A stretch of 64,000 bases of DNA from Aggregatilineales bacterium (lineage in GTDB: Bacteria > Chloroflexota > Anaerolineae > Aggregatilineales > Ch27): NCBI GenBank assembly GCA_029976005.1, contig JARKOQ010000172.1, forward strand, positions 2,254 through 66,253, given 5' to 3'. The translations under genes and the position numbers were made by a program. Every line of letters begins with the position of its first letter. Position 1 is the first letter of the stretch. Under the pieces are notes generated by a model. It was given only the letters and a program-made list of their open reading frames with translations. It made no database searches and was not told where the DNA came from. Shown here piece by piece: positions 11,701-25,192 of this stretch.

Positions 11701-13154
11701 GTACACAGCGGGAACGTGAGCGTGACGTTTACCAGCCCATCCGGCCCGGTATTGTTGACCTGGAAGCCGTACTGGACGGTGTTGTTGGGAAGCTGGCGGT
11801 TGGGCGTAACCGTCATGACCAGTTCCAGCGCGGGATTGGTCTTATCCACGCTGGCCGTCCAGTTGTCGCCGACATTGGTGCCTCGCGGCGAGACGCCGAC
11901 GGCGGTCACGATATTGATCAGGGGATCGGCGTCACTTTCCTTGACGGTATAGTTGACGGTGCGGGTGACGATATCACCGGCGGGCAGCGGATTGGGCACA
12001 CCGGTGATGATGCCGGTCAGCGAGTCGACGACCGTGACGTTGTTGAGCGGCACGTCGCCATTGTTCTCGATCCGGATCGTGTAGGTGATGGTTTCGCCGA
12101 CGGCCGCTTGCTGCACGTTGGCATACTTCAGCACGCGCAGCGAGGGAATCGCCTTGGTGGTCGTCGCACTGTCGCCAAATACCGCAGTGATGCCGGAAGC
12201 CTGGGCCTGAACCACCACGCTGTTCAGGACGGGGTTGGGGTACTCCGGCCGCATCGTACATGAGAAATTGCCAGTCGCCAGCGCGCCAATCGAGGCTGGC
12301 AGGCTCAGGGTGCTCATCAGGCCTTCAATGGTCGAGCCTGGAGTCGGGGTACATGCCCCGAATGTGCTCGTCTCGAAATAGACGTCGTTGATGAAGTTCA
12401 GGGTGGTGGCAATGGCGCGGTTGTTGACGACGGTCAGCGTCCAGGTAATCGTGTCGCCGACTTCGACGGCGGCGCTGGCGGTCAGGTCGACCGAGATGTT
12501 GGGGCCGTCGACGCGGAAGGTCAGATTGTTGGTGGAACCCGTGTCCTGGTCGCAGACGACGCCTATGCTTGGAAAAGTGCCCCAGGCATTCCAGCGGTAG
12601 TCCATAACAACCGGGTCCGAGGCCCGGGCCGTGTATTCGACATAGGCCTGGGCGACTTCTCCTGGCGAGAGGATGCCATCGAAGGTGATCGGATTGCCGG
12701 AGAGATCGGTCCAGATGGGATCGATGTCAACCCGGTTGAGGGCGTTATTCCAGTCCATGCGGACATTGCCCTGAACTCCGGTCGCATCGACCGCCGCCGT
12801 GTTGGTCACGCGCACGACGATGCGCACCAGGTCGCCCGGCGTGACCTGGATCAGGCTGCCTGTGAATCCGCCGGGGTAGAAGTCGTTGTGCAGGATATTG
12901 CGGTTGCCGAAAATCGTAGAGACGGTGTGCAGTTCCCAGAGCTGCACGCTCAGCCGATTGCCAGAGTCATTCGGGCAGACTGCCGGCGGCGTGGCGCCAC
13001 TGGGCCGCTCCGGTATTTCGGCGGGTTGCGCCGCGGCCTCCTCGCCGGCATAGGCGCGCGGCGCGGCCTCCGGCTGGATCAGGCCGGAAGCGTTCAGGAC
13101 CAGCAGCACGATATAGAGCAGAGTGAGGGCAGACCGCAGCCACTTCCTAGACAT
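2778..13154 (-). CDS. Giant secreted surface protein: signal peptide, ~25 DUF11-like Ig repeats, LPATG motif, two TM helices, P/T linker and C-terminal sortase domain
   Basis: N-terminal signal MSRKWLRSALTLLYIVLLVLNASG; repeats of 'L.(V/I)TK.A....A..GDTITY.I.V.N.G......V.D.L...DP..N...V.G'; LPATG at 3663-3677; sortase motifs LYIPKLG, GNTVLAGH, LEVGD, TLTLITC, ERLAIRA. Confidence 0.88.
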   Translation of the reverse strand: MSRKWLRSALTLLYIVLLVLNASGLIQPEAAPRAYAGEEAAAQPAEIPERPSGATPPAVCPNDSGNRLSVQLWELHTVSTIFGNRNILHNDFYPGGFTGSLIQVTPGDLVRIVVRVTNTAAVDATGVQGNVRMDWNNALNRVDIDPIWTDLSGNPITFDGILSPGEVAQAYVEYTARASDPVVMDYRWNAWGTFPSIGVVCDQDTGSTNNLTFRVDGPNISVDLTASAAVEVGDTITWTLTVVNNRAIATTLNFINDVYFETSTFGACTPTPGSTIEGLMSTLSLPASIGALATGNFSCTMRPEYPNPVLNSVVVQAQASGITAVFGDSATTTKAIPSLRVLKYANVQQAAVGETITYTIRIENNGDVPLNNVTVVDSLTGIITGVPNPLPAGDIVTRTVNYTVKESDADPLINIVTAVGVSPRGTNVGDNWTASVDKTNPALELVMTVTPNRQLPNNTVQYGFQVNNTGPDGLVNVTLTFPLCTLPGAGVGCTGGQVNLTSTSIPAGGSVSGSFVYTIQPSDPDPFGYTTRTTATVRATTTTGSIISDSASVFVDILDDRLQITKTADRTSALRGDTITYDIAVTNLTPDQDFVIQSINDSLVGQVGGIPPTGLSLPAGTTYSFSVPYTVAGSDPDPLVNVIEVLTTTPGLSDSTSEIVDISDAQLFITVSSNPPDEQGPGLPVLYNVGIANIGRITLTDIVGYWEVVSGGGAPTQLQINFGSGPTTVPDDLAPFESAFAEFTRTVQSSDPDPLTILVRITGRDDQGLERSFFGTATINVLPTQIRLTKTANVNNAAVGDTINYEFVIENISDEIIDGVTLSDALCPTTSTDCLNGHVLIAPYDGTAVTGPYAETLSLAPADPIAGTPGGMAYGKFSYQVTLTDLTRRNSTITNTATVTGTRRVSGDRVADSNQWNVQVVNPLTIDKAANRVVATRGQCITYTYTITNTGQLSTITNLTLQDSNLGTIGTQASLPPRAVWVVTAPTTPCGAGTGYEVDNDDVTRGAISNAATVTGTVNNQLVSAVDTWEVDVTEPIIVTKSAYGIALIGDEVTYQISVSNVSDSPYTLVSAIDQSNSAGTPGPRDFLATLIAGSSGTADNVLQPGETATMTYSYIVQPRDPNELNNTFTVTVNDGTGNVPYSAASTVEIFSPFLILKTPTPTFALVGQTVHYDYTVWNISRVSMENVVLTDDKLGAIAVRYNGAGVYTTSPQSLPAAISNPADSPCLPFICNPNYLQSDPAGNNYVIKPADLASETLVNTVTVRGVTGAGPVEQGVIILTEDDAEVQVSSPLQVIKTGPASANIGDTINYTITLTNTSLTDTIRNITAVDTLTGEVTLTFPNPANPGQLAPGQTAVGTASLVVPPTASDPFTNIVTANGVMTIGGVDYNLVVQGQAEVDLLNPILAVDLTSDVTEAERGHPINWTVVLRNNGTTTINGLTYDDSTNAIIASLASCPTSLLAGQTASCSWQYTVGTSDPDPLVNTLTVQGTDTGGQSLTASDNAIVDIIDPRFRVSKVADPGIGFVGSTITYTITVTNSSGSIMDSVAATDDLTGPVPLVFPSGVSGRLNPNESAVGVITYTLSQADPSPLFNRVSASGRTIPAGLQLSDSTYTTVLISSSQLLVEKQASPSVVQVGNTITYNIAITNIGQTRIRNLRVVDAAVGLDTSASPNTCGGPVDANGDGSTDYTLTCTVTNPLTVSPAEELRPFQVAFISYRVVASATIPDPFVNEVRVTGLDSSDKPVEGIDRVAVDIAVPGILLTKTADRSGASVNDTIQYTIELVNVGASPLTGIQVVDNVTGQLVPMSYNGGAATTDPALSSLAAGRTARGVVFYVVTRTTPNPFVNTVTVTNDQGLTDGAAATVEIRDLSLTVTKRADVTSALIGDTITYTIEVTNTSSTALTAVMALDQLSGLPVPLHSPTSGLEITSLAVGERAVGTFLYTVPPTVPDPLINRVTVSGRAPSGVVVSTSALAVVDIREADISLSKIAINGAQSGDSITAAVGDTITYQFTIANAGTSNLSNVQVSDPLCATALTGCTGGLVNFIFPGQSVPATTGTLGPNESVTGSITRVIQTSDPDPLVNTARATARTISGVLIQDADSATVQISASALVVTKTIRGIGTCASAVPATSAEIGDTLAYDIEVRNLSASTTIMNVAVQDALTGNYIPFSTFTTPITPGPGTTGPLGPSGFAQACITATVPAGATSPFVNTAVATGQIGGLPVMDTSSASIPLTTSDLLVTNTPDRSFASIGDTVTFTVTIRNTGLTTITSLAASSLPTGSALPLSVTTLAPGQSTIASYTHTISGMDADPYRTTANVTGLSQSRTITGAATASVDIVSPNIRIVKSATPTLATVGTPINYTIAVTNTGTTNIESVTITDTLLGGNITSRFPAVSAAQPLIPGATISATLSRTVTSADGDPAVNTAAVTAVTATGATLTDTSTAQVNIAGSGLQVIKRASVAAAQNGDVITYTVEITNTSTTRVSGLTISDSLTSGLTLPQYSLDPGQRISTSYTHTVNTSTDLDPLINTVAVAGRDQLGVAVSDTSSATVALLSNANLRVILTADRARVLATEPINYLATVTNIGAETLNNITLVATRPDGSTLSLITLADTISLGSGQSVTRTFSYTVQPADVSPITTTVTATGIGAIAGTVTDTSSVRTGLTASSIDIDLRTANCAVPCVAVVGDLVTFAATVTNSGATLLTGLSMTSPQAVTSANPTGQLITGAPPIIQPGESHTVTFAYRVPLGVPPQTLVSVTASAQDPVGATVMQTFDLILSTATPRISVVLTADKTQAANGDTVTYTATITNVGNTTIYNVALVDSRYGSIVVSPAILSLTPNAARQVTFTHVITASDPDPLVNTLTVSATTSFNRSVADNDTFSINVRRPELFVTVAADRSIATVGELINYQITVLNIGDGPVRTLRAVYITATPTQGAGTQQRPSLQGGSIQLTLPADGTLAEGVGTTGTFNHVVTSADANPLTFRVTATGEGLVGTTQVTVSDDALISTPLITVDSSGNPIVVGTPIPGTAAPEVTKTADLAYAIPGGLLTWQVSVRNPGTDPLSGIIVTDTLESTMVLQSVTINNGTIESEGNVIVATTGTLTFNQSAVLTVIARVREDVLANQVLQNIGCATSIGAQQATCATGTVRVSPDASMLPATGAADVAPGQPDFPIGALMIGLLALTGLLGLALNVQDKGLRLVIIVALVAAAVVIVAVVASLVLNLGSAPVGTPQAAAATATPPEAMSAPLETALPTSTPEPGQPTAPPPTPIPIPTAIAALPPGQRVPVETVSQPPFSPQYDRELYIPKLGLSDSVPIVTVPLRNQTWDVRDLGQSIGFLEGTTWVEEAGQGLGGNTVLAGHIQITTGVPGPFRDLDLLEVGDSIFLAERGRIYEFMVYTIDVVAPDDVEVTYPTRNQTLTLITCTTWDAFRGIFEERLAIRAVPVRIMDIQAGA

Positions 13155-13340: not shown

Positions 13341-14528
13341 TCAACGGGCATCGAGACCCGCGTAGCTTTCCAGCAGGCGCACTGCCTGAGCCGGCCAGCC
13401 GCAGACCTGCTGGGCCGCCTGAAGCGCGGCCTGCCACGCCTGGCGCGTGTCTGGATTCTCCAGCCGGATGATGGCTTCCGCCAGTGTTTCCGGCTGATCG
13501 GCATCCCACAGCGAACCGATCGGATATTCCACGAGAAAGTGGGCCAACGCCGGGGTCCGGGTCGAGAGCACCGGCAGGCCGGCGGCGATCGCTTCCAGCA
13601 GTTTGGTGGGGACCGAGAGCGCGTAGTTTGGCTCGGATGCCGTGATGGCGATCAGGGATGCGTCCGCGTTCTGGATGGCGGCGCTGACTTCGGCAGAGGC
13701 GATCGGCGGATGGAAGTGGACCTGCCGGCCGACGCCCAGCGACTCCGCCAGCGCGGCCAGCGCCGCCTTCTGTTCGCCGTCTCCCAGGAAGGTCAGGTGA
13801 ACATCCGGCGGGCAGAGGGCCACGCCTCTGACCAGTTGATCCAGACAGCGTCCCCGGCGGATCAGGCCCCCGGTGTGGATCAGCCACAGGCGCGCGCCTT
13901 CGGGACGAGGCAGGGGCGTGGCATTTCCCACACACGTAACCCCATTAAGTATGGTCACCGGGCAGGCGCATCCCCACCGGCGGGCCATGAAGTCAGCTCG
14001 ATAGGGGCTGTTGGCCAGGATCAGATTGGCCCGGCGGGCCAGGCGGCGTTCCAGGGCGCGTTCCACGGCGAGGCGCAGCCGGGGCCAGGGATGGGGAGGC
14101 TCCGGATAGCGGTAGAGATACAGCTCGTGGGCGTCGTAGACCAGGCGAGTCTTGCGGCGTTGGCCCAGGCGGGCCAGGGCGACCATCACCAGGGCCGGGA
14201 AGTCGTGGGCATGCCAGATGTCGGCGGATTGACGGCGCAGACTACCGAGCAGGGCCAGTCCCTGGAGCACGTGGCGCAGCCGCTTGAGCAGCGGCAACCG
14301 GCGCAGGGCCTCCAATTCTGGCCCGTAGCGGAAGCGGCGGATTTCCCAGAGGCCCGCGGATTCGTGATCGGGCAGCGGGCTGGAAGCGTCGTGCGTGCCG
14401 ATCACGCTGACCGGGTAGCCCGCCTCCGCCAGGGCAGCCGCTTCGTTGCGCACCCGGGTGTCAAACGTGACCTCGTTGAGGACGAGCATCACAACCCGTG
14501 GACTGCCAGGGCTGACATGCTTGATCAT
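13341..14528 (-). CDS. Glycosyltransferase family 4 (GT-B)
   Basis: D.RV..EA..L...GY.V, HAHDF, VYDAHELY, PTKLLEAIAAGLPV motifs. Confidence 0.88.
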   Translation of the reverse strand: MIKHVSPGSPRVVMLVLNEVTFDTRVRNEAAALAEAGYPVSVIGTHDASSPLPDHESAGLWEIRRFRYGPELEALRRLPLLKRLRHVLQGLALLGSLRRQSADIWHAHDFPALVMVALARLGQRRKTRLVYDAHELYLYRYPEPPHPWPRLRLAVERALERRLARRANLILANSPYRADFMARRWGCACPVTILNGVTCVGNATPLPRPEGARLWLIHTGGLIRRGRCLDQLVRGVALCPPDVHLTFLGDGEQKAALAALAESLGVGRQVHFHPPIASAEVSAAIQNADASLIAITASEPNYALSVPTKLLEAIAAGLPVLSTRTPALAHFLVEYPIGSLWDADQPETLAEAIIRLENPDTRQAWQAALQAAQQVCGWPAQAVRLLESYAGLDAR

Positions 14529-14586
14529 GATTGATATACTCTATGTTTATGAACTGTACAGGTATCCAGATTGGGGCAACGCAACA

Positions 14587-15150
14587 TTGAAAATATACAC
14601 GAAAACCGGGGATAGCGGCGACACGGGCCTCTTTGGTGGGGGCCGGGTGCGCAAAAGCGGCATCCGGGTCGAGGCGTATGGAACCGCCGATGAACTCAAT
14701 TCGATCCTGGGACTGGTGCGCGCCTACGGCTTGCCGGAACCGGCCGACCGGTGGCTGGTGGACGTCCAGAACGATCTGTTTTGTCTGGGGGCTGACCTGG
14801 CGACCCCGATGGAGGCCAAGTCCGCCTGGATCGTGCGCCTGGAGATGGCGGCAGTGACGCGCCTGGAGCAGGTGATCGACCAGATCGAGGTAGACCTGCC
14901 GCCGCTTAAGAACTTCATCTTGCCCGGCGGCGCGCCGGCGGCAGCCGCGCTTCACGTGGCCCGGACGGTCTGCCGGCGGGCGGAGCGCATTGCCGTGCAG
15001 TTGAACGACGAGCAGGAGATCAACCCGACCGTCCTGATCTATCTCAACCGCCTTTCGGATTTGCTGTTTGTCCTGGCGCGTTGGGTCAATATCCGGCTCG
15101 GACAGAGCGAAACCGAATGGCAGTCGGGCGGGCGTTCAGACCCGGCCTAG
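14587..15150 (+). CDS. PduO-type ATP:cob(I)alamin adenosyltransferase
   Basis: KIYTKTGDSGDTGL, EAYGTADELNS, FILPGG, ARTVCRRAER, YLNRLSDLLF; likely TTG start at 14587. Confidence 0.92.
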   Translation: MKIYTKTGDSGDTGLFGGGRVRKSGIRVEAYGTADELNSILGLVRAYGLPEPADRWLVDVQNDLFCLGADLATPMEAKSAWIVRLEMAAVTRLEQVIDQIEVDLPPLKNFILPGGAPAAAALHVARTVCRRAERIAVQLNDEQEINPTVLIYLNRLSDLLFVLARWVNIRLGQSETEWQSGGRSDPA

Positions 15151-16019
15151 AGGTCGGCGGCCAGACGGAATCCGACCACGTTATCCTGGCCGTGCGGGTA
15201 GTAGCAGTAACGGGCCGCGCAGCGCGCGTCATCCGGCCCGTGATACCAGGAGCCGCCCCGGACGATCTGCGGCTCTGCGGCGGCTCTGGGATTGGCCGGT
15301 TGGTCCAGGGCGAGCGGGTAGCGGCGCAGGGGGGAATCGCACCATTCCCAGAGGTTCCCGGCCATGTCCGCGCAGCCGAACGGGCTGTCCCCCAGGGGGG
15401 AGAACTGGCCAACCGGCGTGGGGCAGGCCCGGCGCGGCGCGGGATCGGGGGCGTCCCAGCTATCGACCGTCTCCGGCGCGGTGTTGGCATAGGCCGGCTC
15501 CCAGCGATTACCCCAGGGATAACGCCGTCCGTCTGTGCCCCGTGCGGCTTTCTCCCATTCCGGCTCGGTGGGCAGGCGGTAGGCTCCGCCGCTGACGTGG
15601 GACAGCCAGCGACAGTAGGCTGCGGCCGCGTGCCAGCTCACCCCCGCGACGGGCAGGTTGGGATCGTCCGACCAGTCCGGGTCCGACCAGTATTCGGGCT
15701 GAGTGATCCGGTTTTGTTCTCGCCAGCGCCAGCCAGACTCGCTCCAGAAGACGCTGTCCAGGTATCCCCCCGCTTCGACGAAGGCCGCGAATTCGCCGAC
15801 CGTCACGGGATAGCGCCCGATCTGGTAGGCGGGCAGAGTCAGGGTATGCAGGGGCTGCTCCCTGGCGTACCACTCCATCCGGTTGCCGTGCGCCGTGCGC
15901 CCCAACTGCCGTACTTCGCGCGGGTCGGTGCCCATCAGGAAGGGACCGGCGGGAATCGTCACCATAGCCGGATGAGGCACGTTCGGCGCTGCTTGGGGGT
16001 TGGAGCTTGCCTGAGACAT
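15147..16019 (-). CDS. Formylglycine-generating-enzyme (SUMF1/EgtB-like) domain protein
   Basis: IPAGPFLMG, YPVT..EF..FV, RLPTEPEWEKAARG, YPWG, DMAGNLWEW, RGGSW, GFR. Confidence 0.88.
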   Translation of the reverse strand: MSQASSNPQAAPNVPHPAMVTIPAGPFLMGTDPREVRQLGRTAHGNRMEWYAREQPLHTLTLPAYQIGRYPVTVGEFAAFVEAGGYLDSVFWSESGWRWREQNRITQPEYWSDPDWSDDPNLPVAGVSWHAAAAYCRWLSHVSGGAYRLPTEPEWEKAARGTDGRRYPWGNRWEPAYANTAPETVDSWDAPDPAPRRACPTPVGQFSPLGDSPFGCADMAGNLWEWCDSPLRRYPLALDQPANPRAAAEPQIVRGGSWYHGPDDARCAARYCYYPHGQDNVVGFRLAADL

Positions 16020-16075
16020 CGTTTCTACCCAATCCAGGTGCCCTGGCAGGCGGGGCGGCGGCGAAGGGGCGTCCT

Positions 16076-16513
16076 CTAGAGCAGACCCAGGTGGCCGAGC
16101 AAGGCATCCATCCCCAGGATGTAGCTCCGCCAGCCGAATCCGCAAATCTGGCCCAGGCAGACCGCCGCCAGCATCGAGCGGTGGCGGAAGGATTCCCGGG
16201 CGTGAATGTTGCTGAGGTGGACTTCGACCACGGGCAAATCGATGCTGGCGATCGCGTCCCGCAAGGCGATGGAGGTATGGGTGTATGCGCCTGGGTTCAT
16301 CACCACGCCGCCCGCCCAGTTGCGCGCGATGTGCAGGGTATCGATCAACACGCCTTCGTGGTTTGACTGCTGGATGCGCACGGTGACGCTCCGGGCGAGC
16401 GCGTGCTCCTTGATACGATCGTTGATGTCGTCGAGCGTCAGGGAGCCATAGACCTCCGGCTCGCGCTGGCCGAGCAGGTTGAGGTTCGGGCCGTGGAGTA
16501 TCAGGAACTCCAT
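16076..16513 (-). CDS. aroQ: Type II 3-dehydroquinate dehydratase
   Basis: [43 protein letters not shown]; true start at ATG 16513. Confidence 0.95.
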
Positions 16514-16515
16514 GC

Positions 16516-17568
16516 TTATGCTCCGCTCATTTCGGTTAAGACGGATATGACAACGCCGGGGTCTATATTCTCCATAATAAACGGTTTTCCAATCTCCTTC
16601 AAGAGCACGAATCGCGCCCGGCCGTGTTCCCACTTTTTGTCGGTCGCCATCGCCTCCCACAGGCTTTCTGGATCGTAGCGGCCCAGCCGGGTCGGCAGTT
16701 CCAGATGCCCCAGCAGCTCCTCGACCTGGGCGATCAGGGCCGGGTCGCACTGGCCCAGGCGGGCCGAGAGCCTGATCGCCGCAACCAGCCCGACCGCCAC
16801 GGCCTGCCCGTGCTTCCAGGTGTAGCCGCTGATCTGTTCCAGGGCGTGGCCGAACGTGTGGCCGAGATTCAGGAAGGCGCGCACGTTCTGCTCGTAGGGG
16901 TCCTGCTCGACCACGGCAACCTTGACGGAGACCGCGCGTGGCACGAATTCGGCGGCCCGCTCGCGAACCAGCAGGGCGGGATCGAGCAGGCCGGGATCGG
17001 CCAGCAGACCGTGCTTGACCACCTCGGCCAGGCCGCAGCGCCATTCGACCTCCGGCAGGGTGGTTAGCACATCGGTGTCGACGACCACCATCTCCGGCTG
17101 CTTGAAGGCCCCGACCAGATTCTTGCCTTCCGGCAGATCGACGGCCGTCTTGCCGCCGACGCTGGAATCGACCATTGCCAGCAGGCTGGTGGGCACCTGG
17201 ACGAGCCGCACCCCGCGCATGTACGACGCGGCCGCGTAGCCCATGATGTCACCGATCACGCCGCCGCCCAGGGCCAGGACAATGCCCTTGCGGTCGAGGC
17301 CGAGCCTGACCAGACCGCTGTAGATGGCCTCCAGGGTAGGCAGGGTCTTGTAGATTTCGCCGTCCTCGATGGTAAGGACGACGCTGTTAGGCAGCCGATC
17401 CGCCAGCGGGCGGGCATACAACGGCGACAGCGTGGTATTCGTGCCGATGACCGTCCGCGCGGTGAGCCTGTGTTCCTGGAGGAGATCGGGCAGCCGCCGG
17501 AGCGCGCCCGGCTCGAAATAGATGGGGTAGGAGCCGTCCGGTGTTTTTACGGGAATCGTGAGTGCCAT
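16516..17568 (-). CDS. aroB: 3-dehydroquinate synthase
   Basis: [51 protein letters not shown]. Confidence 0.95.
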
Positions 17569-18077
17569 AGCTTGATGATCACCTCCACGGTTTCTTCAGG
17601 GGTCAGGGTGGTCGTATCGACGTGATGGGGCAGGGCCGCATAGGCGGCCGCGCGCTCCGCCAGCAGTTCCCGGATGCGGGCTTCCGGATCGGCGGCCTGG
17701 AGCAGGGGACGGTCGCTCTCGCGCAGACGGGCCAGCAGGCTGTCCGGCGAGGCTTCCAGGCAGATCACCAGGCCGGTGGCGGCCAGGCGCGCCCGGTTGG
17801 TCGCGTCGACGAGCGCGCCGCCTCCGGTGGCGATGACCAGGCCCTGCCGGGCAGCCAGCTCCTGGCAGAGATCGCGCTCCATTCGCCGGAAAGCGGCCTC
17901 GCCCTGGGCGGCGAAGATGGCGGGGATGGTCTGGCCGGCGCGCTCTTCCAGGACGGCGTCCATGTCGATGAACGGGCGGCCCAGACGCTCGGCCACCAGA
18001 CGCCCGACCGTGCTCTTGCCGGTGCCCATGAAGCCGGTCAGGATCAGATTGGCGCGGTCGGGGGCTGGATCGGTCAT
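17547..18077 (-). CDS. aroK: Shikimate kinase
   Basis: GFMGTGKSTVG P-loop, GEAAFR..E, ATGGG, RPLL. Confidence 0.95.
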   Translation of the reverse strand: MTDPAPDRANLILTGFMGTGKSTVGRLVAERLGRPFIDMDAVLEERAGQTIPAIFAAQGEAAFRRMERDLCQELAARQGLVIATGGGALVDATNRARLAATGLVICLEASPDSLLARLRESDRPLLQAADPEARIRELLAERAAAYAALPHHVDTTTLTPEETVEVIIKLWHSRFP

Positions 18078-19270
18078 TCGGCCGGCCAGTCGTAGCCAAA
18101 GCGCCAGGGTTCGTTTCGCATAGTCAGTTCATCCAACCGACCCTGACGCAATGCCTGAAAGCGTGCCCGAAGCTCCCCCAGGCTGTCCCCGCCCAGCTTC
18201 TCCAGCAGGGCATCCGCCAGCACGAAGGCGACCATCGCTTCGCCGACGACGACCGCGCGCGGCACGGCGCAGAAGTCGGAGCGCTCGTAGACGGTCGGCG
18301 CGGGCTGGCCCGTCGCCAGATCGATCGACTCGATCGGGGTCAGGGTGGTGCTGATCGGTTTCATGGCGGCGCGCACGATCAACGGCTCGCCGGTGGTCAT
18401 GCCGCCTTCCAACCCGCCGGCCCGGTTGGTCCGGCGGCGCAGCGCGCCCTGCTCGGCCGTGATCGCGTCGTGCACCGACGTGCCGTAGTGGCGCGTATTT
18501 TCGAAGGCCGTGCCGATCTCCGCGCCTTTGATGGACTGGATACTGCCCATCGCGCCAAGCAGGCGGCCGGTCAGGCGGCGGTCGTAGTGAACATGGCTGC
18601 CCAGTCCCGGCGGCAGGCCCAAAGCCGCGATCTCGAAGACGCCGCCCAGGGTGTCGCGGTCGATCTTGGCCTGGTGGATCGCGGCCCGCATCGCTTCCGT
18701 CGCGGCCGGATCGGGACAGCGCACCTCGCTCGTCTCGGCGGCGGCGAAGCGTTCCTCATAGGGCATGCTCGCGGGCAGGTCGGCCTGAACCCGGCCGATG
18801 CAAACCACGTACCCGCCGATGGCGATCCCGAATTCGGCCAGCAGCTTCTTGCACACCGCGCCTATGGCGACCCGCATGGCGGTTTCGCGCGCGCTGGCGC
18901 GTTCCAGCGAGAGGCGCAGATCGTCGTAGTCATACTTGAGCGCGCCGGTCAGGTCGGCATGGCCGGGACGCGGGGTGGTCATGGGGGGGATGTCCCTCTC
19001 GGCCCAGTTCTTCCAGTCGCGGTTGTGGATGATCAGGCCGATGGGAGCGCCGGTCGTGCGCCCGGCCATAACCCCGGCGGTGAAGTGGATTTCGTCGCGC
19101 TCGATCTGCATCCGGCCCCCGCTGCCATACCCTTCCTGGCGGCGGGCGAGGTCGGAGGCGAGGTCCTCCGGGGCGAGGGGCAGGCCGGCCGGCATGCCTT
19201 CCAGGATGCCGGACAGCAGCGGACCGTGGGATTCGCCCGCGGTCAGGAAACGGAGTCGGGAAGGGGTCAT
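18074..19270 (-). CDS. aroC: Chorismate synthase
   Basis: TAGESHG, RRQ.GYG.GGRM, PRPGHAD, ERASARETA, NRAGGLEGG, MKPIST, ERSD. Confidence 0.96.
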   Translation of the reverse strand: MTPSRLRFLTAGESHGPLLSGILEGMPAGLPLAPEDLASDLARRQEGYGSGGRMQIERDEIHFTAGVMAGRTTGAPIGLIIHNRDWKNWAERDIPPMTTPRPGHADLTGALKYDYDDLRLSLERASARETAMRVAIGAVCKKLLAEFGIAIGGYVVCIGRVQADLPASMPYEERFAAAETSEVRCPDPAATEAMRAAIHQAKIDRDTLGGVFEIAALGLPPGLGSHVHYDRRLTGRLLGAMGSIQSIKGAEIGTAFENTRHYGTSVHDAITAEQGALRRRTNRAGGLEGGMTTGEPLIVRAAMKPISTTLTPIESIDLATGQPAPTVYERSDFCAVPRAVVVGEAMVAFVLADALLEKLGGDSLGELRARFQALRQGRLDELTMRNEPWRFGYDWPAE

Positions 19271-20172
19271 TGGGCCAATACCTGTCTGGCGGCGTCGAGC
19301 ATCAGGTCGATGGGGGCTTCAGTCCCGGTCCAGCGCTGGAACGCGGCCGCGCCCTGTTGTACGAGCATCCCCAGGCCACTGACCGCGTTCAGTCCGGCGT
19401 CCTGAGCCTGGCGGACGAGCAGCGTTTGCTCCGGCCGGTAGACCATATCGTAGACAAAAGCGGTTGGTGGAAACGGGATGCCATCCGGCCAGGGTGAGGC
19501 CGCGGTGTTGGGCCACATGCCCACCGGCGTGCAGTTGACGATCAGATCGACCGGGGTCTTCAGCTCAGCCAGCCGGTCGGGGGTCATCGTCCGGATTTGC
19601 ATCCGCCACTGGGTGGATTCGATGGGGTGTTCGGCGTCGCCCAGCCGGAGGCCGCTCTGAATGCTGCGGATCAGCTCCAGGCCGCGGCCCGGCGTGCGCG
19701 AGACGATCATGATCTGGAAGCCCAGGCGCGCCAGGACGTAGGTCGCCGCGTGAGCCGCGCCGCCCGCGCCCAGGATCAGGGCCAGCATTCCCGGACGCGG
19801 ATCGGGCAGGTGGATCAGCAGATCGCGCTGGAAGCCCAGGATGTCCGTGTTGGTCCCCTGCCAGATCGGCGTGGGATCGGCGAGCGCGGTGACGGTATTG
19901 ACCGCGCCGACCGCCCTGGCTTCGGGCAGGATCGAGTCCAGATGGGGCAGGATGGCCTGCTTGTGGGGGACGGTCACGTTGAAGCCCAGCACCCCGCGCG
20001 CGTGCAAATCGCGCAGGGTGCGCTCCAGCTTATCCGGAGGAACCGGGAATGCCTCGTAACGCCAGTTCAGGCCCAATGCCTTGAAAGCGGCATTGAACAT
20101 GGCCGGGCTGGCGCTGTGCTCGACCGGCCACCCGATCAGCCCGACGGTTTTTGCGGCTTTTGCGGTGCTCAA
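19267..20172 (-). CDS. aroE: Shikimate dehydrogenase
   Basis: G.PVEHS.SP, GFNVTVPHK, GAVNT, NTD, GAGGAA, NCTPVGM, DMVYRP, GL.MLVQQG. Confidence 0.95.
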   Translation of the reverse strand: MSTAKAAKTVGLIGWPVEHSASPAMFNAAFKALGLNWRYEAFPVPPDKLERTLRDLHARGVLGFNVTVPHKQAILPHLDSILPEARAVGAVNTVTALADPTPIWQGTNTDILGFQRDLLIHLPDPRPGMLALILGAGGAAHAATYVLARLGFQIMIVSRTPGRGLELIRSIQSGLRLGDAEHPIESTQWRMQIRTMTPDRLAELKTPVDLIVNCTPVGMWPNTAASPWPDGIPFPPTAFVYDMVYRPEQTLLVRQAQDAGLNAVSGLGMLVQQGAAAFQRWTGTEAPIDLMLDAARQVLAQ

Positions 20173-21497
20173 TGCACGTCCACTCCTAGCCTTGCCAGAG
20201 TCGCAGCGAAACCAGGGAACGAGTCGGCCACGCAGCCGGCCCCCTCGATCTGGCTGGGGCCGCGCGCGACGAGCGCGGCGATCGCCAGGCTCATCGCGAT
20301 CCGGTGATCGTCGTGGCCGTCCAGGGTGGCGCCGTGCAGCGGCTGCGGGCCGGACAGTTGGAAGCCATCCTCCGCTTCCAGGATGACCGCGCCCATCTTG
20401 CGCAGCTCGCCCGCCATGACGGCGATGCGGTCGGTTTCCTTGACGCGCAGCTCGCGGGCGTCGCGCACCGTGGTCTGGCCTTCGGCGCGCAGCGCGGCGA
20501 TCATGAAGGCGGGGAACTCATCGATCATGCGCACCACGGTTTCGCCGCCGACTTCGACGCCGCGCAGGCTGGCCGAGCGAATCGTCACCCGGCCCACGGG
20601 ATCGCCGCCCGCTTCACCCAGGACTTCCATTGTAACATCAGCGCCCATCGCCGCTAACACATCGACCAACCCGGTTCGGGTCGGGTTGAGGCTGACGTGC
20701 TCCAGAGTTACGGCGCTGCCGTCCAGGATGGAGGTGGCCACGATCAGGAAGGCCGCCGAGGAGAAGTCGCCGGGGATGGTCATGCCCAGCGCCCGGAGCG
20801 GGCGGCCGGGGATGAGGGTGACGCGCCCGCCGTCGACGCGCAGCTCGGCCCCCATCGCGGAGAGCAGGCGCTCGGTGTGGTCGCGTCCGGGGCCGGATTC
20901 CACGACGGTGGTCGGGCCTTCGGCAAACAGCCCGGCCAGCAGGATGGCGCTCTTGACCTGGGCGCTGGCGACGGGCAGGGCGTACTCAATGCCGCGCAAG
21001 GGGGCCGGCTCGAAGTGCAGGGGGGGATAGCCGCCGGCGCTGCTCACGCAAGCCCCCATGCGTTCCAGCGGCTCCGTGACCCGGCGCATGGGGCGGCGGC
21101 GAAGCTGCTCGGAGCCATCCAGGGTACTGGGGAACGGCTGGCCGGCCATGATCCCGGCCAGCAGGCGGATGCCGGTTCCTGCGTTGACGAGATTGAGCGA
21201 GTCGTCGGGCGGCTGGAACGCGCCGCCGTGGACGATCAGCGCAGTCGGCGCGGGCCGTTCGATGGTGATGCCAAGCCGGCGGACGGCGTTGAGGGTGGCC
21301 GTGGTATCTCCGGCGGGGAGCCAGCCTTCGACGCGGCTGATCCCGGACGCCATCGCCCCAAACAGGATGGCCCGGTGGCTGATGCTCTTGTCGCCGGGGA
21401 CGCGGGTCGTCCCGCGCAACGGCCCGCCGGGGGCCAGGCGCAGGACGTCGGGATCGACAGGTTGGGCGCTCGATGGGTCAAACGAGGTCGGTGACAT
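20169..21497 (-). CDS. aroA: EPSP synthase
   Basis: PGDKSISHR, RRPMRR, ASAQVKSA, RDHTER, KETDRI, DHRIAMS, SFPGF. Confidence 0.96.
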   Translation of the reverse strand: MSPTSFDPSSAQPVDPDVLRLAPGGPLRGTTRVPGDKSISHRAILFGAMASGISRVEGWLPAGDTTATLNAVRRLGITIERPAPTALIVHGGAFQPPDDSLNLVNAGTGIRLLAGIMAGQPFPSTLDGSEQLRRRPMRRVTEPLERMGACVSSAGGYPPLHFEPAPLRGIEYALPVASAQVKSAILLAGLFAEGPTTVVESGPGRDHTERLLSAMGAELRVDGGRVTLIPGRPLRALGMTIPGDFSSAAFLIVATSILDGSAVTLEHVSLNPTRTGLVDVLAAMGADVTMEVLGEAGGDPVGRVTIRSASLRGVEVGGETVVRMIDEFPAFMIAALRAEGQTTVRDARELRVKETDRIAVMAGELRKMGAVILEAEDGFQLSGPQPLHGATLDGHDDHRIAMSLAIAALVARGPSQIEGAGCVADSFPGFAATLARLGVDVH

Positions 21498-21533
21498 GGT
21501 GTGCCTGGCAGATCGTGCTGCCGGATAAGTCCG

Positions 21534-22412
21534 TTAGCGCAGGTGTTGCTCCGCCCAGGCCTCGCGGGAGTCGTGGGCGGCTTGCAGCAGGGCTTCGAGC
21601 TGGGTGTTGTCCTGGGCGACCAGCGACGCTTCCAGAATCGCGAGCTGGACGCGGTACAGGGCGAGCAGGCGCATGATGGCGGTCCGATTGGTGCTGATGA
21701 TGTCGGTCATCATCCGTACGCTGCTGCCGGCCAGCCGGGAGGTATCCCGAAAGCCCCCCGCCGCCAGCTCCCAGATCGTCGGATCGATCTGGCCCTCGGC
21801 GCTGATGGTGTTGACCAGGGAGGCGCTGAGCAGGTAGGGCAGGTGGCTGATCCCGGCGACCAGGCGATCGTGGCGGATGGCATCCATTTCGATCGGGACG
21901 GCCCCTATCGCGTCGACCAGTTCGAGGGCGCGAATCCGGGCGGCGGGGGTGGCCCGGCGCGGCGGGCACAGGACGAACGGGCGGCCCCGATAGAGCGTGG
22001 CTTCGGCGGCCTGGAGGCCGCTCTGCTCCTTGCCGCACATCGGATGGCCGCCCATCGCCTGGATGCCGATGGGCAGATTGCCCATCTCCTCGCAGATTTC
22101 GGCCTTGGTGCTGCCCAGATCGAGCAGCAGGGTATTGGAGCGGAGGTAGCTGCCCAGCCGGTTGTGAAGCATCTCCAGGATGATGCGCACCGGGGCGGCC
22201 AGGATGACGGTATCGGCATCCTGGACGCCCTCGCGGAGATCGGTGGTGCCCCGGTGGATGATTCCGCCCTTAAATGCATCCTCCAGGGAGTCTTGATCGG
22301 GATCGACGCCCGTGATGCTGCTGACCTTGTCGCGCAGGGCCAGCGCCAGGGAGCCACCCATCAGGCCAAGTCCCACAATGGCGACAGTCTGTCGTTCGAG
22401 CGAGCGAGTCAT
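21534..22412 (-). CDS. tyrA: Prephenate/arogenate dehydrogenase
   Basis: [47 protein letters not shown]; ATG 22412 overlaps the aroF stop (ATGA). Confidence 0.92.
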
Positions 22413-23428
22413 GCGGTTCTGTCCACGGCCTCGGCCACGCGCCGGATGGCGCGCATCATGTCCGCGAAGCGCTTTGGGGTCAGCGACTGCATCCCGTCGG
22501 AGACGGCTTCTTCCGGTTTGGGATGAACTTCGACGATCAGGCCGTCGGCTCCGGCGGCGATGGCGGCCTTCGCGGCCGGTTCGACGTACTGCCAGTAGCC
22601 GGTCGCGTGGCTGGGATCGGCGATCACGGGCAGGTGGGTGCGCTCCTTGAGGACGGGGATGGCGTTGATGTCGAACGTATTGCGGGTGTAGCGCTCGAAG
22701 GTGCGAATGCCGCGCTCGCACAGCATGACGCGGGTGTTGCCGTGGCTGAGGATGTATTCCGCCGCCATGAGCAGTTCTTCGATGGTGCTGCTCATGCCGC
22801 GCTTGAGCAGGACGGTATGCTGGGCCTTGCCGACGGCATGCAGCAGGGCATAGTTCTGCATGTTGCGCGCGCCGATTTGCAGCACGTCCGCGTAATCGCA
22901 GACCAGGGGCACCATCGACGAGTCCATGACCTCGGTTACGACGGGGAGGCCGGTCTGCTCGCGGGCTTCGGCCAGGTACTTGAGGCCTTCTTCACCGAGG
23001 CCCTGGAAGACATAGGGCGAGGTGCGCGGCTTGAACGCGCCGCCGCGCAGCGCGGTCGCCCCCGCTTCCTTGACGGCGTGAGCGGTCTCCAGGATTTGTT
23101 CCCGGCTTTCGACCGAACACGGGCCGGCCATGACGATGATCTTGCGGTCGCCGACCTTCGAGCCGTTGAGCGGGACAAGGGTATTGGCGGCATGGAAGTC
23201 GCGGCTGGCCAGCTTGTAAGGATGGCTGACCGGCATGGTGCGCTCGACGCCATCCATCATCTGGAATTGCTCGGCGTACTCGCGGATATTGCCATCGCCC
23301 ACGATGCCGATAATCGTGCGCTCTTCGCCGTCGCTGAGATGGGCTTCGTAGCCCAGCTTCTTGACGCGGGCGATGACGGCGGAGATTTCCTTGGTGGTGG
23401 ACCCAACTTTCATCACGACAATCATCAT
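22409..23428 (-). CDS. aroF: DAHP synthase (type I-beta) with N-terminal regulatory domain
   Basis: [45 protein letters not shown]; N-terminal MIVVMK...G.ERTIIG.VGD domain. Confidence 0.94.
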
Positions 23429-23442
23429 CCTCGATCTCCTTG

Positions 23443-23883
23443 CTAGCCTTGGTGGCGTGCCGGTTCAGGTTGTGGCCGGTGATCACCGGTCATTTCAGGT
23501 TGAGCGCGATCCGGGCGGAGGACTTCGGCTCCCCGGATGTAGACGTGGTGGATGTCCTTCTGGGTACGGCGCGTGTTCCAGTGAATCAGGACCCGGATGC
23601 AACGCGGCGGACTGTTGGGCGGGGCCATTTCCAGGGTCGTGAGCAGGGCCGTATCCACCCATCCAAGCTGGCGCGCGGCAACCGCCGGATAGGCCGCGGT
23701 CAGATCGGGGGTGACGGTGAAGATCACGCTGGCGACATCGTCCTGCTCGATCCCATTGGCGCTGATGATCTCCTCCAGCAGGGCGCGCGTGGCTTCATGG
23801 ATCGCGTCCGCCGTGTCGGCTTCGGCCAGCACGGCGCCTCGGATACCTCGGCAGGCCCAGGGGGGTTCGGACATAGTGCTCAC
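23443..23883 (-). CDS. aroH: AroH-class chorismate mutase
   Basis: [16 protein letters not shown]...[23 protein letters not shown]. Confidence 0.93.
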
Positions 23884-23902
23884 CTTTCCATCGATTGGCG
23901 CG

Positions 23903-23939
23903 AAAACAAAAAAGCGCAGGGGCGTTATCCCTGCGCTTT
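23903..23939 (-). terminator. Attenuator terminator of the aro operon leader
   Basis: Minus strand AAAGCGCAGGG-ATAACGC-CCCTGCGCTTT followed by TTTGTTTT; perfect 11-bp stem ~25 nt upstream of aroH. Confidence 0.88.
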
Positions 23940-23959
23940 GACTTCCTGGTATGCCGCGC

Positions 23960-24037
23960 TTAAACCGCAGCAGATAACGCCCGACCCGGTGCTATGTCTC
24001 CCCAATAATAAAAGTAAAAGCCGAAATAACCGCGCAT
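23960..24037 (-). CDS. Aromatic amino acid leader peptide MRGYFGFYFYYWGDIAPGRALSAAV
   Basis: 8 of 9 consecutive codons are Tyr/Phe/Trp; lies between promoter and terminator; alternative in-frame ATG at 24082. Confidence 0.85.
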   Translation of the reverse strand: MRGYFGFYFYYWGDIAPGRALSAAV

Positions 24038-24116
24038 GCGGTCACTGGCTTGTTCTTTCGGAAGGAGATTCGCGAGCGGCATGGATCGGGACTCTCTGGC
24101 TGCAAACGCTGGATAC

Positions 24117-24145
24117 AGGATAGCGGCTTTACGGGACGCTGTCAA
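24117..24145 (-). promoter_or_regulatory. Sigma70-type promoter of the aro operon leader
   Basis: Minus strand TTGACA-N17-TATCCT. Confidence 0.8.
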
Positions 24146-24205
24146 CAAATCGCCCCACTGAGTTTTCCCAGGGGGCGATTGGACAGATTGGTTCGCGCGA
24201 CCGGA

Positions 24206-25192
24206 TTACCAGTTGGCGTGCACGTGCTCCCGGATATAGGCGTCGTAGACGGCCCGGACGTTGTCCATGAACGGCCGGGGCAGCGGCGCCAAACTGGCCG
24301 CTTCCACGTTCTGGCGGGCCTGGGCGGGCCGCTTGGCCCCAGGGATTGCGCAGGTCACGGCGTCGAACATCGTGATCCAGCGCAGGGCCGCGCCGACCAT
24401 GTCGTAGCCGGGCGGCAGGGCCGCCTTCAGCTCGTCCACGGCCCTCAGCCCAACCTCGTAGGGCACGCCGGAGAAGGTTTCGCCGACGTCGAACGACTCG
24501 CCGTGGCGGTTGAAGTTACGATGATCGTCGGCGGCGAAGGCAGACTGAGGGGTCATCTTGCCGGTGAGCAGCCCGCTGGCCAGCGGCACGCGGGCGAGGA
24601 TGCCCACCTGCTTTTCTTTCGCCAGCGGGAAGAATTCCTCGGCGGGCTTGAGCCGGAACATATTGAAGATGATCTGCACCGACTGAATGTTGGGATAGCG
24701 TCTGACGGCGGTGAGGGCTTCGCTCACCTTTTCGACGCTGATGCCGTAGTAGCGAATCTTGCCCTCGCGGACGAGACGCTCCAGGGCGTCGAAGGTCGAG
24801 TCCTGCTCGTAGGCCGGGGTGGGCGGGCAATGAAGCTGAACCAGATCGAGCGCCTCCGTCTCCAGGTTCTTGAGGCTGCGCTCGATGAACCCGGCCAGGT
24901 TGGCGTAGTTGTAGCCCGCGGCGGTATGTGGATCGAGCCGCCGCCCGGCCTTGGTCGCCACGAAGACCTTCTCGCGCCGGGCCTTCAGCGTCTGGGCGAT
25001 CAGGCGTTCGCTGCGTCCATCTCCATACACGTCCGCCGTGTCGATGAAGTTGACTCCCAGGTCGATGGCGGTATTCAGCGCGCCCAGCGCTTCTTCGTCC
25101 GTGACACTGCCCCAGGCGCCGCCGATGGCCCACGCGCCGAAGCTGATCACCGAGACCTGCATGTCGGTCCGGCCGAGTTGTCTATATTCCAT
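24206..25192 (-). CDS. Aldo/keto reductase
   Basis: MEYRQLGRT, FGAWAIGG.WG, IDTADVYGDG.SE, ATK, SLKNL, QLH, PLASGLLTGK, IPGA. Confidence 0.92.
   Translation of the reverse strand: MEYRQLGRTDMQVSVISFGAWAIGGAWGSVTDEEALGALNTAIDLGVNFIDTADVYGDGRSERLIAQTLKARREKVFVATKAGRRLDPHTAAGYNYANLAGFIERSLKNLETEALDLVQLHCPPTPAYEQDSTFDALERLVREGKIRYYGISVEKVSEALTAVRRYPNIQSVQIIFNMFRLKPAEEFFPLAKEKQVGILARVPLASGLLTGKMTPQSAFAADDHRNFNRHGESFDVGETFSGVPYEVGLRAVDELKAALPPGYDMVGAALRWITMFDAVTCAIPGAKRPAQARQNVEAASLAPLPRPFMDNVRAVYDAYIREHVHANW

Follow-up and report, generated by a model that had tools for sequence, protein, structure and literature searches.

A putative Phe/Tyr leader-peptide attenuator of an aromatic-pathway operon, conserved across Chloroflexota

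Introduction

Classical ribosome-mediated attenuators, such as Escherichia coli pheL–pheA, pheM–pheST, and trpL–trpEDCBA, are composed of a promoter, a short open reading frame (ORF) with a run of regulatory codons, and alternative RNA structures, in which pairing of regions 2 and 3 competes with the 3:4 terminator, while region 2 is masked once a ribosome has reached the stop codon. A matching architecture is found in the minus-strand leader of a nine-gene aromatic-pathway operon in a 64,000-nucleotide stretch of DNA (hereafter, the window) from the metagenome-assembled genome of an Aggregatilineales bacterium (Anaerolineae, Chloroflexota; contig JARKOQ010000172.1). In comparison with the E. 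coli leaders, that of the window appears to read two amino acids instead of one, is long (40 codons, 18 of them before the run), has as its candidate region 1 its own ribosome-binding region and not the regulatory codons, and has as its target the common pathway and not a terminal branch. A mixed leader has a precedent in aroR of Corynebacterium glutamicum, which carries Phe-Tyr-Phe and precedes the aroF (3-deoxy-D-arabino-heptulosonate 7-phosphate (DAHP) synthase) operon (Neshat et al. 2014, via PMC11802643); it resembles the present leader in its Phe/Tyr content, its position ahead of a DAHP synthase operon, and, as outlined in that article, its transcription attenuation by ribosome stalling. 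Compared by description only, and within what that article relates, aroR has three regulatory residues as against eight aromatic residues in nine codons in the window; the two leaders belong to different phyla, and the unit in the window comprises the whole common pathway together with chorismate mutase and prephenate dehydrogenase (tyrA). The original prediction, made by a model that read only the DNA, had assigned the leader to trpL/pheL-type logic and described such leaders as usually serving one amino acid; the logic holds, and the word "usually" must make room for the mixed aroR precedent, in so far as the article outlines it.

We consider that the element is very probably an uncatalogued classical leader-peptide attenuator conserved across Chloroflexota. 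Since the mechanism itself is textbook, the gain lies in breadth and annotation, not in principle. In its account of such leaders, a 2005 survey of Actinobacteria gives no such element for Phe or Tyr, and the corresponding part of a 2010 genome-wide terminator study states that leader peptides had until then been found only in Proteobacteria and Actinobacteria, to which it added Firmicutes. No description for Chloroflexota was found by full-text searches, with priority unsettled because Lopatovskaya et al. 2010 (Mol Biol 44:128) may cover other phyla; within the reach of those searches, the earlier claim that the element is undescribed in this lineage stands. Gene regulation in Chloroflexota, most members of which are uncultured, is almost unstudied, and the element provides a concrete regulatory candidate for the phylum. 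It would widen the known distribution of classical attenuation far outside Proteobacteria and Actinobacteria, add a small ORF and an RNA family that Rfam and genome annotation miss, and exemplify a pathway-level design, in which one leader would read two end-products beside a DAHP synthase carrying an allosteric domain.

Leader ORF and regulatory codon run

The promoter, leader ORF, terminator, and complementary segment of the original prediction are all present on the minus strand at the coordinates that it gave. The central feature of the leader is the regulatory codon run TAT TTC GGC TTT TAC TTT TAT TAT TGG (24002-24028), encoding YFGFYFYYW. In a six-frame scan of the window's own assembly (4.76 Mb in 268 contigs, 65.9% G+C, 82% complete), covering 9.5 million 10-residue segments, 8 of 10 residues were Phe, Tyr, or Trp at only three places, among which the leader run is the only one rich in both Phe and Tyr, the other two being Trp-rich. 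The leader uses the rarer synonym at 5 of its 7 Phe/Tyr codons (TTT for 2 of 3 Phe and TAT for 3 of 4 Tyr), as judged from codon use in ten genes of the window (TTT 16 vs TTC 116; TAT 32 vs TAC 91). The leader RNA (221 nt) has a folding energy of -84.3 kcal/mol, compared with -70.1 ± 4.3 kcal/mol for shuffled sequences (z -3.3; 0/200 as good).

Several further observations concern codon content. Over 74 unique leaders, TTT and TTC occur 206 and 51 times, respectively, though TTC is the commoner Phe codon in this genome, and ATA, which is rare among Ile codons (8 of 383), is located within a conserved GACATA just 3′ of the run. Other aromatic-rich segments of the genome (C198, C259, and six Trp-rich ones) were rejected as leaders, as none had a short ORF and a terminator before a biosynthetic gene.

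Two in-frame start codons were compared. The internal ATG at 24037, at which the original prediction had begun the leader, gives a shorter frame that opens with ATG CGC GGT and the codons of the run (4 Tyr, 3 Phe, and 1 Trp) and continues to the same stop codon. The upstream ATG at 24082 lies 15 codons before it, with a Shine–Dalgarno (SD)-like AGAGAG (24097-24092) 9 nt before the start, in a 5′ untranslated region (UTR; 24083-24103) that is also the candidate region 1 on the basis of folding. A same-genus genome has GAG at the position of ATG 24037 and retains the ATG at 24082, while the other 8 of the ten genomes of the family have GTG or ATG 16-18 codons before the run, with GGAG/AGGA 5-12 nt ahead. 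Over 78 unique loci, a strong SD accompanies 40 of 230 in-frame starts, compared with 9 of 268 in the other two frames. Because the congener lacks ATG 24037, the start position in the family is homologous, and strong-SD starts are enriched in frame, the leader probably starts at 24082, not at 24037, and the ORF (MPLANLLPKEQASDRMRGYFGFYFYYWGDIAPGRALSAAV) then has 40 codons plus TAA (23962-23960), spanning 23960-24082.

A sigma-70-type promoter (24117-24145) precedes the ORF, with the -35 element TTGACA (24145-24140), a 17-nt spacer, and the -10 element TATCCT (24122-24117), matching the consensus at 10 of 12 positions. It is the sole promoter-like site in 23000-25000 (one, compared with 0.5 ± 0.9 in shuffled sequences), and TTGACA-N16-18-TATnCT is present in all ten family genomes. 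The transcript is predicted to start near 24110.

Terminator, antiterminator, and their geometry

The leader ends in an intrinsic terminator (23901-23939), composed of a stem at 23939-23911 (-18.9 kcal/mol; 11 pairs, 7 of them GC, with a loop of 7) followed by TTTTTTGTTTT, with the U-tract at 23910-23901; it is kept in 10 of 10 family genomes in the RNAalifold consensus. The antiterminator would form between region 2 (23961-23983), in the last 7 leader codons with the core GGGCGTTATC at 23982-23973, and region 3 (23920-23936), which includes the 5′ arm and loop of the terminator and the first 2 nt of its 3′ arm. The complementarity of GGGCGTTATCTGCTGCG (23982-23966) with CGCAGGGATAACGCCC (23935-23920) thus involves bases of the terminator itself, and participation in the antiterminator helix explains the conservation of the terminator loop.

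The antiterminator duplex of the window has an energy of -30.5 kcal/mol, compared with -15.8 ± 2.2 kcal/mol when region 2 is paired with 54 unrelated terminators, of which none is as good (0/54). Over 65 unique loci, the mean is -20.7 kcal/mol for cognate and -16.1 kcal/mol for non-cognate duplexes, and the cognate one is within the best 5% of the non-cognates at 28 of the 65 loci, about 3 being expected. In the alignment of the ten family genomes, 94.9% of the cells of the 10-bp core are paired, a value that drops to 37-58% when the partner strand is slid. One core pair is swapped from U-A to G-C in 4 of the genomes and mismatched in 1, so that compensatory change, which the original prediction had proposed to look for, is present.

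The spacing of the elements is consistent with control by ribosome position. Between the last aromatic codon and the antiterminator strand, the median distance is 17 nt (interquartile range, 14-18; 59 of 65 loci within 11-22), and from the start of that strand to the stop codon it is 23 nt. In the window, region 2 begins 18 nt past the TGG, and the stop codon lies 21 nt past the start of region 2. With ribosome footprint sizes taken from general knowledge, a ribosome with the TGG in its A site would reach about 23992 and leave region 2 (from 23983) free, while one that has arrived at the stop codon would mask 17 of the 23 bases of region 2. Taken with the cognate duplex and the wide conservation described below, this geometry supports the trpL/pheL-type logic with a mutually exclusive antiterminator.

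In free RNA spanning 23991-23908, the terminator and antiterminator states are nearly isoenergetic (-32.8 and -31.7 kcal/mol, respectively), and the antiterminator is the minimum free energy (MFE) structure (-25.3 kcal/mol) before the 3′ arm of the terminator is transcribed. The near equality of the two states and the early dominance of the antiterminator suit a kinetic switch. A further hairpin, P1 (24020-24049; -15.1 kcal/mol), is located within the leader ORF, its 3′ arm overlapping the first aromatic codons; it is present in the RNAalifold consensus of the ten genomes with changes on both sides at 4 of its 6 pairs, and it is possible that P1 acts as a pause hairpin for RNA polymerase.

Conservation in relatives

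We surveyed the upstream 450-500 nt of chorismate mutase loci in 29 same-order genomes and 80 named genome records, taking as a leader any frame with at least 6 Phe, Tyr, or Trp in 10 residues and as a terminator a hairpin followed by a T-run. Some loci occur in both sets (L031 = L007; L032 = L008), and counts of unique runs are therefore given. A leader frame followed by a hairpin and T-run was found at 27 of 30 same-order loci (that of the window included), the three others being L024 (5/10), L028 (4/10, a weakly aromatic frame at about -360), and L030 (none). Among the Chloroflexota-labelled loci, 56 of 71 have the leader frame (67 of 71 at a threshold of 5/10), and 43 of the 56 also have a T-run terminator. 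None of the nine loci labelled Planctomycetota or Desulfobacterota reaches the threshold, the maximum being 4/10. The carriers include Roseiflexus, Chloroflexus, Oscillochloris (including O. trichoides DG6), Ardenticatenaceae, Promineifilaceae, Caldilineaceae, and Anaerolineales. The search of relatives for aromatic-rich small ORFs, by which the original prediction was to be checked, was thus productive upstream of chorismate mutase.

The run is conserved as a coding sequence. At the 7 gap-free run codons of the ten family genomes, third positions vary at 6 of 7 (TTT/TTC and TAT/TAC swaps), while first positions vary at 2 and second positions at 3, mostly at the non-aromatic codon, the Phe/Tyr codons being almost fixed there. 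This pattern argues for a translated frame and not a pure RNA motif, and the leader conservation on which the original prediction depended is thereby borne out.

Leaders in which no T-run terminator was recognized (L035, L040, L042, L043, L048, L055, L056, L066, L072, L074, L084, L087, and L109) are mostly from Chloroflexia (Roseiflexaceae, Chloroflexaceae/Chloroflexus, Oscillochloris, and Chloroflexales), with L043 and L048 labelled Anaerolineae. The weaker Oscillochloris leaders (5/10 or less: L067, L073, L078, L079, and L098) also have no hairpin plus T-run. These leaders may have a different read-out, such as a terminator of lower strength or control at the level of translation.

The aromatic operon

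Pfam searches confirmed all nine aromatic-pathway genes 3′ of the leader on the same (minus) strand. The first is chorismate mutase of the AroH type (23443-23874; CM_1, E = 7.6e-44), with AAAGG 8-12 nt 5′ of its ATG (23874), followed by a type I-beta DAHP synthase (22409-23428; DAHP_synth_1, 9.9e-81) and tyrA (21534-22412), whose checked start codon, an ATG, overlaps the DAHP synthase stop codon. Downstream lie, as assigned by Pfam, 5-enolpyruvylshikimate-3-phosphate synthase (aroA, 20169-21497), shikimate dehydrogenase (aroE, 19267-20172), chorismate synthase (aroC, 18074-19270), shikimate kinase (aroK, 17547-18077), 3-dehydroquinate synthase (aroB, 16516-17568), and type II dehydroquinase (aroQ, 16076-16519). 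Six of the eight junctions are overlapping (five by 4 nt and one by 22 nt), the other two being gaps of 14 and 36 nt, and no terminator-like site was found inside the operon, the leader terminator being the sole minus-strand one in 14400-24300. The claim that the leader controls a nine-gene operon is accordingly supported by the gene order.

An aldo/keto reductase gene ends upstream of the leader at 24206. It accompanies the leader at only 12 loci, all in the family, of the 83 leader-bearing loci, and for this reason the leader is assigned to the aro operon rather than to this neighbour; the idea that the leader terminator belongs to the aldo/keto reductase gene was rejected on the same count.

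Amino acids probably read by the leader

The 71 unique runs contain on average 3.5 Phe, 3.3 Tyr, and 0.55 Trp; at least two Phe and at least two Tyr are present in 67 of the 71, and Trp in 33. The operon in the window includes genes of the Phe/Tyr branch (chorismate mutase and tyrA) and no trp gene. The N-terminus of its DAHP synthase is a ferredoxin-like regulatory domain (DAHP_snth_FXD, 9.3e-22), which in the Thermotoga maritima enzyme serves feedback by Tyr/Phe; this pair is the same as that of the leader, and we count it in favour of Phe/Tyr sensing.

The original prediction had gone further and proposed that the single TGG adds a response to Trp, so that one leader integrates all three end-products of the pathway. 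The run in the window does end in TGG, as noted some Trp occurs in nearly half of the unique runs, and the operon makes chorismate, which Trp synthesis needs too. Moreover, upstream of trpE in two relatives (L112 and L113), a non-systematic inspection by eye found T-runs but no Trp-codon leader, and Rfam gave no match. Set against these points, Trp is missing from 38 of the 71 unique runs, falls far short of Phe and Tyr in mean content, and is found in the run of only 5 of the ten family genomes; the run in the window has a single Trp codon; the gene content of the operon points to the Phe/Tyr branch; and in C. glutamicum aroR, by the account given in PMC11802643, not even Tyr acted. Sensing of all three amino acids is thus rather unlikely, and in this respect the original prediction is not supported.

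Proposed mechanism

The DNA directly shows the elements described above, how they complement one another and are spaced, that they are kept in relatives, and that the codon run is conserved in the manner of a coding sequence. On this basis, it is highly likely that the element is a classical ribosome-mediated transcription attenuator that reports charged tRNA-Phe/tRNA-Tyr and sets transcription of the aromatic operon. The scheme that we infer, comprising leader translation, stalling, the order of folding, pausing at P1, and the response to amino acids, would be as follows. Transcription would start near 24110, and a ribosome would load at ATG 24082 and trail the polymerase. With Phe and Tyr plentiful, the ribosome would pass YFGFYFYYW to the stop codon (23962-23960) and cover region 2 (23983-23961), the terminator (23939-23911 plus the U-tract) would form, and the transcript would end ahead of chorismate mutase. 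A shortage of charged tRNA-Phe or tRNA-Tyr would stall the ribosome within 24028-24002, with its front edge at least 9 nt short of region 2, which would pair with region 3 (23936-23920) on emergence; no terminator would form, and the nine genes would be transcribed. If the leader is not translated, the initiation region (24103-24083) would pair with region 2, and because of this pairing in untranslated RNA the default state is expected to be termination. Under stalling, the helix between the initiation region and region 2 would have to be prevented from closing, either sterically or by further ribosomes that load and line up along the 18 codons before the run.

Several results weigh against this scheme. 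The cognate antiterminator lies outside the best 5% of non-cognates at 37 of the 65 loci, and the terminator state is favoured by 1.1 kcal/mol when only the 3′ segment is folded. When the whole leader was folded at equilibrium with a 28-nt ribosome mask, the terminator was kept at all 26 codon positions from ATG 24037 to the stop codon, so that the masked folding by which the original prediction was to be checked did not reproduce the switch. The terminator persists because region 2 finds a partner on the far side of the mask, in the 5′ UTR (24103-24083) with its SD-like bases, and antitermination would then need kinetics, steric exclusion, or trailing ribosomes; the switch is reproduced by truncated, co-transcriptional folds, unlike the whole-leader equilibrium fold. 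The leaders of the window and of the same-genus genome (L001 and L002) have no strong SD and only the weak AGAGAG, and 13 of the 56 Chloroflexota-labelled leader loci have no T-run terminator by the criterion used. The sole hint of RNA is one 151-letter metatranscriptome contig (X18) on 23952-24100, with one differing letter, which falls inside the predicted leader transcript; contigs from RNA runs show no ends, strand, or level and may reflect DNA carry-over, X15 and X16 being probably DNA. Finally, in C. glutamicum aroR, a relative by mechanism, only Phe limitation was effective, according to the passage on it in PMC11802643.

Predicted pairing of the initiation region with region 2

When the transcript is folded without translation and up to the terminator, its MFE structure in each of the ten family genomes joins the initiation region of the leader to the segment after the aromatic codons. 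Region 2 is there paired with the initiation region rather than with the regulatory codon run. This long-range helix has 17-41 pairs, its 5′ strand lying at about -32 to +35 of the start codon, and its strands differ among genomes, for example GCCCGCCCUGC with GCAGGGUCGGGC as against GCCCGUUUUGC with GCAAAGCGGGC. The modelled helix is suggestive of a default-off "region 1:2" structure that would form when the leader is untranslated. Over the 65 loci, the mean for this pairing is -25.8 for cognate and -23.6 for non-cognate partners, with only 8 loci at 5% or better; among the ten loci of the family, four reach 0.04 or better, with a median near 0.1. The long-range pairing was thus not accepted as a general feature, its signal being weak over the 65 loci and better only within the family, and it is retained as a hypothesis.

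If it is taken at face value, the element might be a variant attenuator with a region 1 made up of the ribosome-binding site (RBS) and first codons of the leader itself, a reading that we regard as unlikely. An untranslated leader would then be one long closed stem hiding both the SD/start codon and the antiterminator strand, and read-through would need a stalled lead ribosome together with more ribosomes that go on loading or line up over the 18 codons before the run and so hold the stem open. Were it true, the switch would respond to translation initiation in addition to the supply of Phe/Tyr-tRNA, and the element would be an ancient phylum-wide device of Chloroflexota, shared by Anaerolineae and Chloroflexia.

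Explanations without amino-acid sensing

A different possibility is that the terminator and upstream ORF (uORF) operate without amino-acid sensing, as a constitutive partial terminator or a uORF acting on translation or mRNA stability, the aromatic codons being incidental. The failure of whole-leader equilibrium folding to free the terminator and the weak SD of the window leader would both be expected on such a view. It accounts poorly, by contrast, for a Phe/Tyr run that is conserved across very different leader sequences and terminators, that varies synonymously at third positions, and whose aromatic density occurs at only three places in the 9.5 million segments scanned, or for an antiterminator that fits its cognate terminator at a fixed distance from the run. 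We therefore regard it as very unlikely.

Least credible of all is an RNA that binds a ligand or a protein (riboswitch, T-box, or TRAP-like) and thereby controls the same terminator, the ORF playing no part: the leader is strongly structured (z -3.3) and has conserved nucleotide blocks (GACATA and GGGCGTTA), but no Rfam family, T-box included, reaches threshold, the best cis-regulatory match (trpB motif, 22 of 59 bits) rests on the terminator only, the item conserved phylum-wide is the amino-acid content of the frame and not an RNA fold, and the sequence changes preserve frame and codons.

The Rfam results in the window were as follows. No match was obtained at the gathering threshold, including Phe_leader (RF01859), Trp_leader (RF00513), and T-box, and on 23850-24200 no leader family was matched even at E values up to 10, at which the trpB motif was the sole cis-regulatory match. 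The sub-threshold matches (Atu_C9 on the opposite strand, trpB motif, Vault, mir-7143, and STnc320) all lie on the terminator hairpin and were rejected. The trpB ncRNA motif (RF04312), set aside among them, scored 22.3 bits (E = 0.46) against a required 59, its alignment resting on the terminator; the portion of PMC11109978 that deals with this motif describes it for Firmicutes and Fusobacteria.

Other aromatic branches and neighbouring genes

Upstream of pheA in four relative genomes, a non-systematic inspection by eye found no aromatic-codon leader, and there was no Rfam match. Prephenate dehydratase (PF00800) was not found in the 82%-complete assembly; in 4 of 5 relatives it is located elsewhere in the genome, with no obvious leader. 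In the window's own genome, trpE lies at a contig end (C206, 6656-8193) with only 77 nt of upstream sequence.

A gene of the FGE-sulfatase family (about 15147-16019, minus strand) begins 57 nt after type II dehydroquinase with no terminator-like site between them, and may be the tenth gene of the operon. Further along the minus strand (2778-13154), the window encodes a giant surface protein of 3458 residues, with an N-terminal signal-like segment and at least 17 DUF7507 and 7 DUF11 repeats. Its C-terminus contains a sortase domain (residues 3308-3449) with a TLITC motif, the repeats thus being fused to their own sortase-type domain. Contigs from wastewater and sludge metagenomes of two studies, among which the sample of origin may be included, contain the segment 22400-24300 of the window nearly whole (0.80-0.94 of sampled words).

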